A stretch of DNA of 55,726 nt from a virus (IMGVR_UViG_2916199983_000001); one strand, 5' to 3'; counted from the first letter of the stretch, positions 38,824-55,726 are shown. The notes: generated from the sequence alone by a model not told the origin. A program made the numbers and translations.

Positions 38824-39417
38824 TTACGCTGCCTTTTTACGTGGTCTCTTCTTCCTGACAACATTGGCAGGATCATAACCACCCAGCTTTTTCATCACCG
38901 CCAGCGGTATCTTGCTGATGGTGTGCCCAGCTTCCTGACAGTAGCCACGGAAGATAAGCAACATGCTACCACCAGGGTTGATGTTCACCTCCACCAGCCC
39001 AAGTTCAACATCCGGCTCAACGAACGCCACGCGGCCGCCAGACAAGATGACGGTTTCGTTGGCGCATTCAGCCGCACGCTCGTACCACTGCGTATCGAGG
39101 GATTGTGGTATCAACATGACTGTCGTCACTCCACGCGCCTGCTCGCGAATGGCTGCGTCTATCCAGGGGGTGATTTTGGAGTAGGGCGGGTTAAGGAACG
39201 CCACAGTGCCAGGTTCTCCCCAGCTGCACTTGAGCGCATCACGCTCAACACCGATAAAGTTCGGCAGGAGGGCATTATCTTTGTTGCAGGCGACGTCCAC
39301 ATCGAACTTTACGCCTATGTAACGTTGGATGGCGACAAACAACCACTGCGGTGTGCGCCAAAGGTCGCGAAGAGAGGCATCACGCTCTCGCTTTTTGATT
39401 TTTTCGGCTGCGATCAT
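38824..39417 (-). CDS. dam: Phage Dam-family N6-adenine DNA methyltransferase
   Basis: DLWRTP, FDVDVAC, FLNPPYS motifs of the phage Dam family. Confidence 0.85.
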   Translation of the reverse strand: MIAAEKIKKRERDASLRDLWRTPQWLFVAIQRYIGVKFDVDVACNKDNALLPNFIGVERDALKCSWGEPGTVAFLNPPYSKITPWIDAAIREQARGVTTVMLIPQSLDTQWYERAAECANETVILSGGRVAFVEPDVELGLVEVNINPGGSMLLIFRGYCQEAGHTISKIPLAVMKKLGGYDPANVVRKKRPRKKAA

Positions 39418-39602
39418 TACTTTGTTCTGATAGGTAAACACTTACCTATTTTTTCATTTAATCCAACGGATAGCAAACAAAGAAGAACGCGCCAGATCCG
39501 CAAACGGGAAGCTCTCTGGCGCGTTTTATCGATGCTGGGTATGCGATTAGCTTACCCAGCGTCCTAAAGCTCTCAGGGGGCTTTAGATCGGGTAGGGGAA
39601 CA

Positions 39603-49624: not shown

Positions 49625-50371
49625 TTACCACGTAGCCCAGGTTGGGCATTCCATTAGTTTCTGTTCAAGTGTCTTCTCCGGCTCGCGAGTTGGCGGCTTC
49701 GGAATGTCGCTAACAACATGAATGCTATCGTTGGTTAGAACGCCTGCCGCAATATCTGCATCAATCATGCTCTGGCCGATGAAATGTCGCATGATGTCGA
49801 TCAGATGGCGTGCAGCCGTTTCATTCGCGCTGAATACATGGGGGAGAAGAACTTCAATAACCGCTACTTCACATCCCTCCTCGTAAAAGCAAAGTTTCGC
49901 CCGCTTTGAGATTGGCGCGTGCCGATCATAGTCAACAGAGAAGCTGGCGAAGGCAGCACCCGGCATTGCAACGTGATCTGCGCGTGCGTTAGCGTGTCGA
50001 ATCAGATTAGTGAATGCGGTGCTGATGTGCGTCTCCATCGCATTGAAGAGCGCATTTTCTTGGATGTTCAGCGTTCCGGTTTCAGGAATCACAACGAACC
50101 CCGGCCCAGAATGTGGGAGATATCCACCTTCCGTAAATGGATTAATAAGGATCGGCGCAGTGCTTCCTGACGGCAGCATAGACAAACTCGGCATCAACGG
50201 AGTCGATGACAACAGACTGGTTAATACCGAGAACTGGTCGTCATTGATGTTTTCGTTTTTCCACAAAAGTGCAGGCGCAGCTGCTTTTGCCGTATGGTGG
50301 TTTATCAGCTTTATAGACTGCATCACGGCAAACATCTGCAAAAACTGCGTTCGGCTCAAGTTAAACGACAT
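49625..50371 (-). CDS. Hypothetical protein
   Basis: 248 aa ORF overlapping the SbcC-like stop. Confidence 0.75.
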   Translation of the reverse strand: MSFNLSRTQFLQMFAVMQSIKLINHHTAKAAAPALLWKNENINDDQFSVLTSLLSSTPLMPSLSMLPSGSTAPILINPFTEGGYLPHSGPGFVVIPETGTLNIQENALFNAMETHISTAFTNLIRHANARADHVAMPGAAFASFSVDYDRHAPISKRAKLCFYEEGCEVAVIEVLLPHVFSANETAARHLIDIMRHFIGQSMIDADIAAGVLTNDSIHVVSDIPKPPTREPEKTLEQKLMECPTWATW

Positions 50372-52277
50372 AGCTGCGACCCTCTTTGACTTCGACTGTG
50401 ATGGTTTCCCGGAACCACGATTTCATCTCTTTGTGGGAAATGATCATCACTGTGCCGCGTTCACGCGCTTTGGCTTCCAGAATCCCCATGAGACGCTCCA
50501 GACCGGCAGTGTCGAGCGCGTCGTCAATTTCATCCCCGATAAACAGCTCGATATTCTTACTGGCGCGACTGGCAACCAGATCCTGCAAAGCAAGAGAGCA
50601 CGCAATGCGTACCTTACGCTTCTCGCCACCAGACAACGTCTGGAAGGATTTGCTGGAGCCTGTTTTGGTTACGCTGATATTGAATTTGTCGCGATACTCG
50701 CCTTTCTTTGTTGTCTCCATTGTCGACCATTCGGCAACGATATTGCCGTCCGACAGCGTGTTGAGATACTCCGCAGTCCTGATGTTCAGGAAAGGCGTAA
50801 CAGAAGTCAGGATGTGTGAACGCACGCCAGCTGGGGAGTAAACCTGGCGAGCTTTCTCCAGCAACAGAGCCTGTTCCTGAATGCTTTTTAACTCTTTTTT
50901 AAGTACTGCATGATTAGATTTATTGGCAGCCAGGTTGTCTTCATGGCGCTTAATGACAGCCAGAAATGGGTTTACCTCTGCCATGATGCGATTCACGTCA
51001 GTACGCGCCCGCGCCACCATCGCTTCGACGGCCACAACTTCACGTTCTCGATGACGCAGCGCACTTAGCTCATTGGTCAGGCGTTCGATTCTGGCGATGA
51101 TTTCTGAGACGTCGGGTGTGGCTGCGACCAGTGCAGACTCGATGCCGAGCGCTTTCTCAAGACGAGCTTTGTGTTGAGCCACTGCCGCTGCTGATGCCTG
51201 CGCCTGGCCGATCTCATTACGCGCTTGTTCAATGAAACTCTCCTTCACGGTGGACAAATCTTCTTCGCAGTAGGGCTTTCCGCACGTAACACAAGGCGCC
51301 CCGACCTTTGTGCTGACCTCTTCTGCTTTGGTTTTAAACGAACGAGCACGGTTCATGGACTCGTTCTGTGCCGCTTCTGAAGTGCGGATGCTTGAGCGGA
51401 TCTCCGTAATCGCACCGCGCACCTTCAGCAGTTTGGCGTCATGCTCTTCTTTGGAGGCCAGCTTGCTGCGTTCGCCAGCAATCGCGTTTTCCGTATCCCG
51501 GATCTGTTCCGGCAGCGAGCGAATTTCCATCACGACTTCAGACAGTGTTACCTCCGCGCCAGCCAAATCGAATCGAGCCTTGTCCAGACGTTCGCCGCGA
51601 TCGCGCTCCCAGCTATCAGAGGACGCTTTGGCCGCCTCAATCTCTGACTGTGCGGTCTCGATAAGCGTGAGACAGGCGTCCATTTTGGATTTGGTAACAT
51701 CCATACGTGCGGCAGCTGCGTTGGCTCGCTCGCGAGCAATTGCATAGGCTCGCGTTAACCGGTCGACGCCAGCGGCTTCTTCAACGATGGTTTTGAGGTT
51801 CTTGTCGGACATACCCGGCAGATCTGGCATTGCTTCCTGACTGGCGTAGATGGACGCCATGAACACCTCTTTCGATGCACCAATCAGGCGTTCAACGAAC
51901 TCCTGCGTCAGTGTGTCTTTGCCTTTGGTCATATCACCGTCTTCGCCACGGACGATCAGCCGGTTCTTGAACTCTTTGTGTTTGCGGTGGCGAATGATGG
52001 CGTAACGCTTTCCTTCATCCTCAACAGTCACCATCACGCGACAGTTTTTCTCGTGGCCTGTAGACAACACGTCGTCACCTTTAACGCCATGCGCAGTTTC
52101 GCCATACAGACACCACATCAGGCTGTTCATCAAAGTCGATTTGCCCGCGCCATTGCTGGCAGCAGAGGAGTCGCCACTGTTAACACCCTGAATGAGCACC
52201 AGACCGCGTTGGTCTAACTCAACTTCGGCGCTGGCTAACGCCATGAAGTTCTCAACCTGGAGCTTTAGAAATTTCAT
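50361..52277 (-). CDS. SbcC/Rad50/gp46-like SMC ATPase
   Basis: NGAGKS Walker A, coiled coil with CVTC zinc hook, LSGGE signature, IGDEIDDALD, IISH. Confidence 0.92.
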   Translation of the reverse strand: MKFLKLQVENFMALASAEVELDQRGLVLIQGVNSGDSSAASNGAGKSTLMNSLMWCLYGETAHGVKGDDVLSTGHEKNCRVMVTVEDEGKRYAIIRHRKHKEFKNRLIVRGEDGDMTKGKDTLTQEFVERLIGASKEVFMASIYASQEAMPDLPGMSDKNLKTIVEEAAGVDRLTRAYAIARERANAAAARMDVTKSKMDACLTLIETAQSEIEAAKASSDSWERDRGERLDKARFDLAGAEVTLSEVVMEIRSLPEQIRDTENAIAGERSKLASKEEHDAKLLKVRGAITEIRSSIRTSEAAQNESMNRARSFKTKAEEVSTKVGAPCVTCGKPYCEEDLSTVKESFIEQARNEIGQAQASAAAVAQHKARLEKALGIESALVAATPDVSEIIARIERLTNELSALRHREREVVAVEAMVARARTDVNRIMAEVNPFLAVIKRHEDNLAANKSNHAVLKKELKSIQEQALLLEKARQVYSPAGVRSHILTSVTPFLNIRTAEYLNTLSDGNIVAEWSTMETTKKGEYRDKFNISVTKTGSSKSFQTLSGGEKRKVRIACSLALQDLVASRASKNIELFIGDEIDDALDTAGLERLMGILEAKARERGTVMIISHKEMKSWFRETITVEVKEGRSYVV

Positions 52278-52510
52278 ACAATGCCTCTAACTTTTTGATT
52301 CAAATGCTGGCCTTTTCGCAGTTGAAACTCCGTGTGGGCTGGGAAAGATCTGCGTTTCAGTACGCCTTGTTTGCTCAGTCTTCCCAGATAAAACGCCACA
52401 GGGTTTCCGTCAGGTGGGTAGGGCTTGTGGAACATCACCGTCTGGCCTCGTTCAAGTCTTTTCATCGTGGAGATGAAGTCCCGAAAGCTCCCAGAATGGC
52501 TCGTACTCAC
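52274..52510 (-). CDS. Hypothetical basic protein
   Basis: GTGA overlap with SbcD-like stop and overlap with SbcC-like start. Confidence 0.65.
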   Translation of the reverse strand: MSTSHSGSFRDFISTMKRLERGQTVMFHKPYPPDGNPVAFYLGRLSKQGVLKRRSFPAHTEFQLRKGQHLNQKVRGIV

Positions 52511-53592
52511 ACTGCCTCCGCACTCTCCGCTTCGGTCAGGATCTCCTGACACAGCATGTCCAGCTTGCTCAGGTCGAAGCCGCCGTCAGTGTCGTGAACG
52601 ATCTTGCAGTACGCCGCGACGGACTCGCCCAGGCTGTCTATTTTGCTGGTCTCCGCAGTACTGGCAGTGCCTTCCATCATCGATGCCTTGCGGATGAAGT
52701 TGCAGACGACACCCTTAGCGCCCATTGTTTTCAGGACGTTCTGGAGTTTGATGCCTTCTTCATCGCTCTCAACAACGGCACGAAAGCGCACGTAGTTACC
52801 GCGAATTTGGTCGTCTTCCACATCGTCCTCAAGGTTGACGAACTTGGGTGCGGAGGTTTCGTGGTGGGTGAATGTGCCGTCAGGGTTGACGATCATGAAG
52901 CCAGCCAGAGAGCCAACATCGCCCCAATTCTGGTGCGTCAGCGCCCCGATGCTAACCACTCCAGGCAGCACTTCTTTGTGGTTGTGGTAGTGTCCGGACA
53001 GCAACAAACGGAAGCCGATATCTTTCAGTTCCTGTGCGTCGATGCCGACATCAGGCATGGTGGGGATCGCTTTGTTGATCGAGGTATGCACAACGACATC
53101 GTGGTTGTCGCCATCCAGCCCGGAACGCAGTGTTTTGAGGTCGCTGATAAGCTCTGCGTGGTTATTGCGCCAGCTAATCAGGTGGACGGTAACGTCGCCC
53201 ATTTTGATGGAGTGAGAGCGTTTGCCGCAGACGATTTCCACACCGATTGAGCGCAGAGAGGCCGCTGCATTGGCGCTGTATACGGAATCGTTGGTTTCGA
53301 GGTCGTGGTTGCCGGCCAGCATGACCACTTCGAGGCCCAACTCTTTGATGATCCACTCGTAAGTTTCGGTCACGAAATGCAGGACGGAAGGCGATATAGC
53401 ACCACGAACATGGAAAGTATCACCAGCCACCAGCATGTGCTTGCAGCCCGCAGCTTTCATGGCTTTGGCAGCTTCTTTCGTGGCGTCCAGTTGGATCTCC
53501 AGTCGAGAGTTCAGCCCGTCAGCGTTTGTTGTCGCAAAAGCATCCCAACGATGATAATGGGGATCTGATATCACCCCGTATGGCAATGTCAT
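52507..53592 (-). CDS. SbcD/Mre11/gp47-like metallophosphoesterase nuclease
   Basis: SDPH, AGDTFH, GNHD, SGHYH motifs. Confidence 0.92.
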   Translation of the reverse strand: MTLPYGVISDPHYHRWDAFATTNADGLNSRLEIQLDATKEAAKAMKAAGCKHMLVAGDTFHVRGAISPSVLHFVTETYEWIIKELGLEVVMLAGNHDLETNDSVYSANAAASLRSIGVEIVCGKRSHSIKMGDVTVHLISWRNNHAELISDLKTLRSGLDGDNHDVVVHTSINKAIPTMPDVGIDAQELKDIGFRLLLSGHYHNHKEVLPGVVSIGALTHQNWGDVGSLAGFMIVNPDGTFTHHETSAPKFVNLEDDVEDDQIRGNYVRFRAVVESDEEGIKLQNVLKTMGAKGVVCNFIRKASMMEGTASTAETSKIDSLGESVAAYCKIVHDTDGGFDLSKLDMLCQEILTEAESAEAV

Positions 53593-53767
53593 GTGTCTTT
53601 TCCTTTGTGGTTATTTTGATACAGATGTTAAGCGTGTTTGAGAGGCGAACAACCCAGACAACACGGCACAGAAGAAAATCTACAGGCACATGATTATGAC
53701 AAGATATATAAGTAAATACCTACTTATTTTTATGGTGGTGACAATATCTCAACCGTATGGGGGCTTA

Positions 53768-54262
53768 TTACTTCGGATCGCGAAACAGCATCTGCGTGCC
53801 TTTGGGGGACGTGTCAAAAAGGAGAAAACCTCTGCGTTTTAGCATGTCGGCCATTTGCGAGGATTTGACATAGCACTTCGCCATCATCGGCTGGATCGGG
53901 TTTGAATCGATCATGTCGGACACCAGCATTGACCCATAGCCTTTCCCGCGTAGCTCTTTGACGATACTGACGGCTCGGAGTTCAAGTCGTGGCGCACCGG
54001 TTGGATCGAGTGCGGCACAGAGCCAGATTAGCCCTGCTTTTTTGTCATCAGAACGGCGCAGCAGGATGTAGATATAATGCCCGGAGTATTGGCCCTGCTC
54101 GTTCGTCTTGATGGCTAGCCTGGTCTGCTTCTCAAAGGTTTTACCCCCCTTTGATGTGAGGATCTCTTCGTAGAAGTGACCCTTGCGTGCGCCGTCTTCG
54201 AACTCACCCATGATAAATGGCATGTCTGCCACAGTTGCTGCCCTTGAATAAAATTCACTCAT
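53768..54262 (-). CDS. GNAT family acetyltransferase
   Basis: VSIVKELRGKGYGSML motif A. Confidence 0.8.
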   Translation of the reverse strand: MSEFYSRAATVADMPFIMGEFEDGARKGHFYEEILTSKGGKTFEKQTRLAIKTNEQGQYSGHYIYILLRRSDDKKAGLIWLCAALDPTGAPRLELRAVSIVKELRGKGYGSMLVSDMIDSNPIQPMMAKCYVKSSQMADMLKRRGFLLFDTSPKGTQMLFRDPK

Positions 54263-54337: not shown

Positions 54338-54982
54338 TTAAAACGTCTCAGGGGGCTTCTGACGCGCTACGCTGATGTCGATTACCCCAGCTTTTGGGCG
54401 AGGGTCGACAAGATTCAACTCTTCAGCGCTGTGATACTCCGTATCGAACTCCCGATCGACATGGCGAATGTAGATGGCCGTGAGAAGGCTGTCGTCGTTC
54501 AGGAAGTGTCCGTAGGATTTGCGGATCACTTCGCCAACCTTCTCGATCTTCTCCCCACCCATGCAAAGATGGTTAAACCGGCTATGTTTCCGCAGCATCT
54601 CATCCACCGGGCCGGAGTAGACCTTATCGACTCTCCCGAACCGGATGATATTTCCAGTATCAGCCTCAACCAGACAAACGAGCTTGCCAGGTTCGACCCG
54701 GTCTCGCCATGTTACACCAGAGCGCAGTGTGTTGAAGTAGGGAGCGTCTAATCCGATGATCGGTTTACGAAATGCCAGCAGTGGCACGTAACGTATGCAA
54801 CTGTTCAGGTGGAAGTGCGCACCGGCGTCGTGGAGTTTGAGCCGGGTTTCGTTAATCGGGCACTTCGACGCAATGCCACACAGGTCGCAGAGCAACTTCT
54901 GTTTGTTCAGGCTAGTGTTCGATTCAATGGTGTAGGAGCCATCTTCAAGACGGCGAACCCAGCGCGTGCGTTTGAGATCCAT
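54338..54982 (-). CDS. Hypothetical protein with Cys cluster
   Basis: 214 aa; C..C....C...C possible metal site. Confidence 0.7.
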   Translation of the reverse strand: MDLKRTRWVRRLEDGSYTIESNTSLNKQKLLCDLCGIASKCPINETRLKLHDAGAHFHLNSCIRYVPLLAFRKPIIGLDAPYFNTLRSGVTWRDRVEPGKLVCLVEADTGNIIRFGRVDKVYSGPVDEMLRKHSRFNHLCMGGEKIEKVGEVIRKSYGHFLNDDSLLTAIYIRHVDREFDTEYHSAEELNLVDPRPKAGVIDISVARQKPPETF

Positions 54983-55059
54983 AATTCTTATTCAAATAGT
55001 TTTGTCCGGGGCAACGATAACTGACAAGGCGCACCGATGTTTGCAAATGCCTGTTTTAC

Positions 55060-55285
55060 TTATACCCATTATTCACAGGACCGATCCAATAATTAGATCC
55101 CCAGAGAGATCCTACAGAAGATCAAAAGAGATCCCCGATCGTCTCCAGCCGTTGCGGTTACTGGCCTGAGAGGGGGTTACTATCCACTATGGGGAGGAAA
55201 GTAACCTCTGTAGAGAGCATATTAACCGCTATGAAGAGCAAAACAACCTCTCTGGAGAGTGGTCGGCATCCACTGTAGTGAGTAG
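55060..55285 (+). other. Iteron-type replication origin module 1
   Basis: DnaA boxes TTATACCCA (55060) and TTATTCACA (55069); six GATC (55083-55140); five repeats with CC at 55184, 55205, 55226, 55247, 55270. Confidence 0.8.
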
Positions 55286-55396
55286 GAGACATTGTCTTAA
55301 CTGGATAACTCAGTGCCTGTGTTTCTACGTCAGGTAGCTGATATTCATAGAGATGTTGGAAGTTTTGCGTTCAGGCGTGTTTGTTTCGACCACACA

Positions 55397-55690
55397 TTAT
55401 CCCCAGAAGGGGAGTGATGGCTGGTTATGCAATTACCTGATTTTTATACACAGGCCCGATCCAGTAATTCAGATCCCAAAGAGAACCCAAGAGACCCACA
55501 AAGACCCAAAAAGATCCCCGCACCCCGCAAACCGTTGTGCCGCATGGTCTTAGAGGTGATCGATATCCACTATAGAGAGAAGATCAGCCACTATGAAGAG
55601 CAAACCAACCACTGTAGAGAGTAGAAAAACCACTATAGGCGGTAGGATAACCGCTGTGATGAGTGCTACTATCCACTGTAATCAGCAAAG
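55397..55690 (+). other. Iteron-type replication origin module 2
   Basis: DnaA boxes TTATCCCCA (55397) and TTATACACA (55444); GATC/GACC repeats 55458-55516; six repeats with CC at 55567, 55588, 55609, 55630, 55651, 55673. Confidence 0.75.
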
Positions 55691-55726
55691 GCCACCAAAG
55701 CGGTCGAATAAAAAGAGACACTTGGA

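Follow-up and report, generated by a model that had tools for sequence, protein, structure and literature searches.

P1 oriR is the textbook example of a Dam/SeqA-controlled plasmid origin, in which the origin iterons and the operator of the initiator gene are the same DNA. Origin function in P1 reportedly needs methylated GATC heptamers, a view that goes back to Abeles and Austin in 1987 and Brendler et al. in 1991, and the Dam dependence of this origin and the binding and sequestration of its core by SeqA are said to stem from work of Abeles and Austin in 1987 and Abeles et al. in 1993, both cited in PMC2865523, and of Brendler et al. in 1995. A different arrangement exists in R6K, where the alpha, beta and gamma origins are served by one initiator and are not known to represent tandem, paralogous copies of a Dam-regulated core. 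In RepFIB replicons, upstream iterons (BCDD'D'') are combined with downstream control iterons (E-K) that exert incompatibility, and the downstream iteron block alone displaces the plasmid (PMC11983097). Membership of IncY has been tied to iterons near-identical to those of P1 together with a RepA that is at least about 72% identical to P1 RepA (PMC10999674).

We analysed a stretch of viral DNA of 55,726 nucleotides (hereafter the window), the end of which carries a replication region. Positions 54950-55726 are 100% identical to the last 777 bases (positions 118950-119726) of the circular Citrobacter plasmid pRHBSTW-00570_3 (NZ_CP056401.1). An earlier note, made from the window alone, had suspected a rep gene just beyond its end; inspection of the sequence past 55726 bore this out, the ATG of repA being the very next base in this record (annotated 1-1056). 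Over the same 777 bp, DNA identity amounts to 98.3% with S. Typhi pHCM2, 97.9% with Salmonella phage SSU5 and 95.6% with Y. pestis pMT1 (pMT1/pFra), RepA does not differ from that of pHCM2 (100% identity), and the matching records are typed as IncFIB by MOB-suite. The replicon of the window is the catalogued IncFIB(pHCM2) replicon of the SSU5, pHCM2 and pMT1 phage-plasmids, from which it does not differ structurally, and the layout around repA is alike in pHCM2, SSU5, pMT1 and an E. albertii plasmid. RepA matches the Rep3_N (7.6e-11) and Rep3_C domains and is 54-64% identical to RepFIB RepA and 49% identical to P1 RepA. The iterons are unrelated to those of P1, a difference in sequence because of which IncY membership is not expected.

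The flanking genes (SbcCD-like, GNAT and phrog_2105) are common to the window and the backbone of the pHCM2/SSU5 group. As is also seen in pHCM2 and SSU5, the stretch just upstream of the replicon (50361-54262, minus strand) encodes an SbcC-like ATPase of 638 aa, an SbcD-like metallophosphoesterase of 361 aa and a GNAT acetyltransferase; the direct neighbour of the replication region is the conserved phage gene phrog_2105 (54338-54982, minus strand), part of the phage backbone. Database records of the pHCM2, SSU5 and pMT1 group annotate repA only, with no origin, iteron or DnaA feature, and an Rfam search of 54900-55726 gave no match. Our literature search found no paper joining iterons with pHCM2, pMT1 or SSU5; the 1998 pMT1 papers and the classical RepFIB and P1 papers fell outside this search, so that an earlier description is possible.

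The features of the region, in coordinates of the window, are as follows.

55060-55288, plus strand: module 1 (M1), the copy distal to repA, with DnaA boxes, AGATCC-type heptamers, a GC-rich spacer and five iterons of 21 bp
55060-55077, plus strand: tandem DnaA boxes of M1, TTATACCCA (one mismatch) and TTATTCACA (perfect match to TTWTNCACA)
55081-55141, plus strand: heptamer block of M1, five AGATCC-type heptamers and a sixth GATC (GATC at 55083, 55096, 55108, 55120, 55130 and 55137)
55142-55181, plus strand: GC-rich spacer of M1 (AT 0.40)
55182-55288, plus strand: five iterons of M1, cores at 55182, 55203, 55224, 55245 and 55268 (spacing 21, 21, 21, 23)
55289-55441, no strand: intermodule spacer of low conservation, with a length that varies among lineages and no conserved ORF
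55444-55691, plus strand: module 2 (M2), the repA-proximal copy, with a DnaA box, heptamers, a GC-rich spacer and six iterons of 21 bp
55444-55452, plus strand: DnaA box of M2, TTATACACA, a perfect match (clade M2 consensus TTATcCAC)
55456-55518, plus strand: heptamer block of M2, six heptamers (GATC 55458, GATC 55472, GAAC 55483, GACC 55493, GACC 55503, GATC 55513)
55519-55564, plus strand: GC-rich spacer of M2, with a GATC at 55558 right before the first iteron
55565-55691, plus strand: six iterons of M2, cores at 55565, 55586, 55607, 55628, 55649 and 55671 (spacing 21, 21, 21, 21, 22)
55664-55672, plus strand: predicted promoter of repA with the extended -10 TGcTACTAT, lying between M2 iterons 5 and 6
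55692-55726, plus strand: repA leader, as placed by the repA annotation of the 100% identical record NZ_CP056401.1

The earlier note had described this region, at 55060-55690, as two modules offset by about 380 bp and resembling P1 oriR, with five and six iterons in a 21-bp period, six GATC sites in the first module and GAAC or GACC at three positions of the second. This description stood in every element: the offset is 375 bp when measured from DnaA box to DnaA box and 383 bp from first iteron to first iteron, the iteron spacings were recovered exactly, the six GATC of the first module and the three non-GATC positions of the second were found as described and both modules align with the annotated P1/P7 oriR over DnaA boxes, Dam-site heptamers and GC spacer. 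The repeats go beyond chance. The iteron motif has 35 matches in the window, 11 of which, including all four perfect ones, fall within 55184-55685 on one strand and in a 21-bp register, matches elsewhere in the 55.7 kb being at the shuffle expectation of about 19. Aligned with each other, M1 and M2 reach z = 13 over dinucleotide shuffles, and their non-iteron halves alone still reach z = 9; the two modules are paralogues. Predicted duplex stability of the two heptamer blocks (-1.28 and -1.33 kcal/mol/bp) is too similar to discriminate between them.

Some further elements lie in and between the modules. The intermodule spacer contains a weak DnaA-like site, ACTGGATAA, at 55300-55308 on the minus strand (two mismatches), and several Pantoea lineages carry a perfect minus-strand DnaA box at this position. 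An imperfect inverted repeat of 22 nt (77% complementary) pairs 55315-55336 in the intermodule spacer with 55434-55455, which includes the M2 DnaA box; as the E. albertii relative does not share this repeat, it is probably a chance occurrence. Small ORFs within the modules were rejected as candidate genes, as all are shorter than 70 aa and overlap the repeats, and the intermodule region is unconserved. Downstream of repA, outside the window in the identical record (positions 1062-1655), about 14 irregularly spaced iterons follow (7 direct and 7-8 inverted), an incA-like, iteron-only control array in which no GATC was found.

Compared with P1 and P7, the region shares the order of DnaA boxes, GATC heptamers, GC spacer, five phased iterons, repA and a bidirectional iteron control array. 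M1 contains all parts of an origin of the P1/RepFIB type, namely DnaA boxes, a GATC heptamer cluster and a GC-rich spacer beside iterons. Its identity to the oriR core of P1/P7 amounts to 76-77%, and it is the only module detectable by BLAST; its tandem DnaA boxes are placed as at the left end of P1 oriR and align to the annotated DnaA site of P1/P7. The iterons have the same number and phase as in P1 and an unrelated sequence (GATGTGTGCTGGAGGGAAA in P1, ATCCACTGTAGAGAG here). Whereas P1 has one module, the origin iterons of which are the repA operator, here an extra promoter-free array (M1) lies upstream. Since the distance from M2 to repA equals that from oriR/incC to repA in P1, M2 is the positional counterpart of the P1 origin and M1 the extra upstream copy; the M2 iterons occupy the place of the P1 incC iterons and are presumed to be the repA operator. 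M2, too, has the anatomy of a P1-type origin, with a DnaA box, phased heptamers (spaced 10-14 bp), a fixed spacer length and six iterons, yet only three of its six heptamers carry the GATC of the P1 type, and the extra CCCGATCG site is lost. The M1 heptamer block is presumed to be the opening region and the target of Dam and SeqA.

RepFIB replicons (P307, F, pO157, pSLT repA2 and IncFIB(K)) have in common with this region a DnaA box, five GATC sites, a spacer, about five upstream iterons and downstream control iterons. They differ in possessing a single upstream module followed by 110-190 bp free of iterons before repA, without a proximal array or a second DnaA/GATC core. The likeness to R6K is limited to one initiator facing several potential initiation sites in one replicon.

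The left half of M1 also occurs next to another initiator. SSU5-like phage-plasmids, pG749_2 of E. coli (L006, 2501-2800) and Klebsiella H55-H59, encode a different Rep (48% identical) with TGTCAGCGG-type iterons; what they still share with M1 extends from the upstream phage gene through leader and DnaA boxes to the six GATC heptamers (75-77% identity over window positions 54950-55141). The left half of the origin, which is independent of Rep, seems to travel with the phage backbone, rep and iterons being swapped.

Comparison with relatives showed that the doubling is common to the RepA clade, from Yersinia to Pantoea and Xenorhabdus. In a survey of 80 loci fetched by RepA similarity, two upstream arrays were present in nearly all of those with 62-100% RepA identity, the genera concerned being Kluyvera, Yersinia, Buttiauxella, Franconibacter, Rahnella, Erwinia, Pantoea, Phytobacter, Cedecea and Xenorhabdus. 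A single module was found in P1, P7, E. coli RepFIB, pSLT repA2, Klebsiella IncFIB(K) and the pG749_2 Rep replicon, and large Pantoea plasmids (L065-L089), the RepA of which is 69% identical over residues 1-292, have one GATC cluster. The M1 iteron array occurs in nearly all clade members, and DnaA boxes are found in M1 throughout the survey, in several lineages on both sides of the module. The extra heptamer and extra iteron of M2 (six and six) are confined to the pHCM2/Cyrano lineage, M2 having five and five elsewhere in the clade.

In a tree built from 15 sequences of each module, M1 groups with M1 and M2 with M2, never by lineage, and all clades with good support contain one module only; clustering as strong as that observed did not occur in any of 500 label shuffles. 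A tree with M1 as one clade had a log-likelihood 1.49 above that of the free-search tree and was not rejected (p-AU 0.58). This is consistent with one old duplication without concerted evolution, and a recent duplication is ruled out by the clade-wide presence together with the module tree. The doubling therefore stands as what appears to be an old, conserved design of the whole RepA clade, with both copies probably kept by selection. An apparent set of natural M1 deletions, suggested by record counts (272 for M1, 335 for M2), was discarded as an effect of megablast sensitivity, as M1 is only 77-83% identical in E. coli Cyrano-type plasmids, which do hold M1.

To what extent each module is constrained can be read from the comparison with the E. 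albertii plasmid, for which third codon positions of repA (65% identical) and of the upstream gene (53%) served as proxies for silent sites. The intermodule stretch, at 64.7% identity, is at this silent-site level. The DnaA box and heptamers are 77% identical in M1 and 93.6% in M2, and the iterons 83% in M1 and 90.6% in M2. In a sliding window, the M2 heptamer block reaches 0.90-0.93, against 0.58-0.67 in the intermodule stretch and 0.73 in the M2 spacer. The block is thus an island between less conserved flanks, and not merely part of a recombinant block. While the sequence of the M2 spacer drifts (73% identity), its heptamer-to-iteron distance of 54 nt is intact. This distance, counted between the last heptamer and the core of the first iteron, amounts to 52-55 nt and mostly 54 in both modules of nearly all lineages; in M1 it lies within 52-55 nt in all lineages, so that spacer length appears constrained there as well.

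A tally of the heptamers by position separates the modules further. In 42 lineage sequences of M1, 207 of 210 heptamers carry GATC, and all five do so in 39 of the 42; the exceptions all concern heptamer 2 in three Xenorhabdus lineages (AGTTCC, AGACCC and AGTACC). The P1 origin core has four GATC heptamers with a fifth GATC beside them and one non-GATC heptamer, AGGTCCA, between GATC 752 and 775 of K02380, at position 2 as in these Xenorhabdus lineages. In M2, for which heptamer 5 was the anchor of the tally (its 32/32 holds by construction), GATC is retained in 29/32 lineages at heptamer 1, in 30/32 at heptamer 2 and in 16/32 at heptamer 3. Heptamer 4 never reads GATC (0/32; variants GTTC, GACC, GAAC, GGTC and GTAC), and its flanks are conserved (A 97%, G 100%, C 100%, C 94%). 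The earlier note had spoken of Dam sites that were erased from the second module. Their absence holds, but erasure in the sense of decay does not: as the loss of GATC is position-specific and the flanks are conserved, the missing M2 sites represent a conserved state.

The same loss of methylation sites could in principle mark M2 as a duplicated pseudo-origin that is drifting towards loss and of which only the iterons matter, a view in line with the lower number of GATC in M2 than in M1 and with the absence of its left half from some lineages; this is the least credible reading, contradicted as it is by an M2 core with much stronger conservation than silent sites or the neighbouring spacer, by the position-specific pattern just described and by the fact that this core is recognisable across Enterobacteriaceae, Erwiniaceae and Xenorhabdus, at 62-77% RepA identity.

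The end of M2 distinguishes it from M1 in another respect. A clade-wide M2 consensus, TGAGTGnTAGTATCCACTGTA, spans the last two iterons and has no counterpart in M1, the clade consensus of the M1 iterons showing no conserved promoter element. The extended -10 within M2 sits where the annotated -10 of P1 repA lies, between iteron copies 11 and 10. From conservation and position, we infer that the last M2 iterons are a predicted repA promoter combined with its operator; the transcript of repA is predicted to start about 7-9 nt past 55672. A generic sigma-70 scan listed no plus-strand promoter in M2, so missing the predicted extended -10, and gave two minus-strand hits in the modules, at or near chance level. 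In four RNA-seq runs from four studies, Logan contigs of 7-9.6 kb run through the locus and give no ends, strand or level. The earlier note had left the choice between two complete origins and one origin plus an origin-shaped copy-control locus. Both alternatives live on in the readings weighed below, with the exception that M2 as an incA-like control locus falls away, since the conserved, predicted repA promoter of the proximal copy would make M2 at least an operator.

Natural variants lacking one or the other module provide a further view on their roles. In at least eight lineages the M2 DnaA box and heptamers are lost and M1 and the proximal iterons retained; lineages lacking the M2 core comprise Franconibacter, Phytobacter, Entomohabitans, Scandinavium/Pseudescherichia, Tolumonas, P. 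latae, P. deserta and two other Pantoea. In such lineages M1 must suffice as origin. The reciprocal state is seen in a 65.9-kb contig (C321) of the Buttiauxella metagenome-assembled genome (MAG) G003 (locus L053, 1150-1600), where M1 is decayed, with three GATC, heptamers 2 and 4 reading GATT and a single iteron, M2 is intact with five iterons and the repA frame is open. A Rep3 search of this MAG gave two hits, one per contig, and the other contig (L050) is a complete two-module replicon. This single metagenome-assembled contig, examined by the Rep3 search only, hints that M2 alone might carry a replicon.

Taken together, we propose the following course of events, which at an even level of confidence we put forward as a division of labour between the modules. 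One old tandem duplication would have given rise to two P1-type origin cassettes upstream of repA (Rep_3), both kept by selection. M1 would be the canonical Dam-dependent origin, at which RepA on the five iterons and DnaA would open the fully Dam-methylatable heptamer row, with SeqA sequestering it after firing as in P1. M2 would be the operator and promoter of repA, where RepA on the last iterons would autoregulate its own gene, together with a working, methylation-desensitised origin core and possibly a second origin. With its DnaA box, heptamer frame and 54-nt spacing intact and its central heptamers held non-GATC, M2 would assemble an origin-like complex that is less responsive to methylation and sequestration; alternatively, this core may be a purely DnaA/RepA-dependent regulator of repA. 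The iterons 3' of repA would exert incA-type copy control by handcuffing, an expectation carried over by analogy from RepFIB, just as Dam dependence and SeqA sequestration are projected here from P1. That M1 can fire is very probable. Whether M2 can fire as an auxiliary origin seems to us evenly balanced: the working origin of P1 has one non-GATC heptamer, so that such heptamers are tolerated, which counts for a functional M2 core, and the reported need of P1 for methylated GATC heptamers argues against firing. The dispensability of the M2 left half in at least eight lineages counts against the division of labour as a whole.

The closest competitor, which we consider a serious possibility of somewhat less than even probability, holds that only M1 fires and that M2 is purely the promoter and operator of repA, its DnaA box and GATC sites serving transcriptional control, so that DnaA or SeqA at M2 would modulate repA after replication and not take part in opening. 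The restriction of the promoter element to M2 fits this well, as do the universal, fully methylatable M1 and the persistence of the replicon where the left half of M2 is lost. A promoter located about 100 bp downstream, however, leaves unexplained why the heptamer frame with its A, G, C and C flanks and the 54-nt distance have been kept, and the Buttiauxella contig appears to live on M2 alone.

A more tentative reading, which we regard as rather unlikely, makes both modules live origins, M1 being Dam-dependent and SeqA-sequestrable and M2 a demethylated twin able to open during sequestration of M1 or under scarce methylation, such as might follow infection or induction or be met in a new host. 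To set the modules apart in this respect, selection would then hold the central M2 heptamers non-GATC, and nature would have separated heptamer function from Dam methylation. As a side observation, a 205-aa ORF at 38827-39441 (minus strand) matches PF05869, the phage-type N6-adenine methyltransferase family (Dam; 4.9e-37), and has an NPPY motif; going by this family match, the element may methylate adenines itself, which would bear on a GATC-controlled origin.

Very unlikely, finally, is a reversal of roles, in which M2 would be the real origin and M1 a control locus in cis, a Dam/SeqA-sensing iteron sink that handcuffs M2. The P1-like distance between M2 and repA would agree with it, and so would the higher identity of the M2 left half (93.6% against 77% for M1 between pHCM2-type and Cyrano-type plasmids) and the retention of M2 beside a decayed M1 in the Buttiauxella contig. 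Yet all canonical origin features of M1 are retained throughout the lineages, with DnaA boxes on both sides in several, the M2 origin core is absent from at least eight lineages, and a pure iteron sink needs neither DnaA boxes nor five phased GATC heptamers, incA having neither.

The IncFIB(pHCM2) replicon and its hosts were already known, and the doubling is a specialist refinement of a known system and not a new kind; what is added here is the heptamer tally by position, the 54-nt geometry kept by M2, the island of conservation, the test on the module tree and the reciprocal natural variants. A large family of enterobacterial phage-plasmids depends on this replicon for maintenance, among them S. 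Typhi pHCM2, the pMT1 type of Y. pestis and elements with resistance genes; so do many plasmids of Pantoea, Erwinia, Rahnella and Xenorhabdus. Under the division of labour that we favour, the combined origin and operator of P1 would be split here into two copies, in one of which the methylation sites are removed at fixed positions and the heptamers kept. As such, the locus poses two questions, namely what role heptamers have besides methylation and how origin firing and autoregulation of the initiator interplay. Moreover, how the copy number of these elements is controlled also matters for the dosage of resistance genes carried on them.
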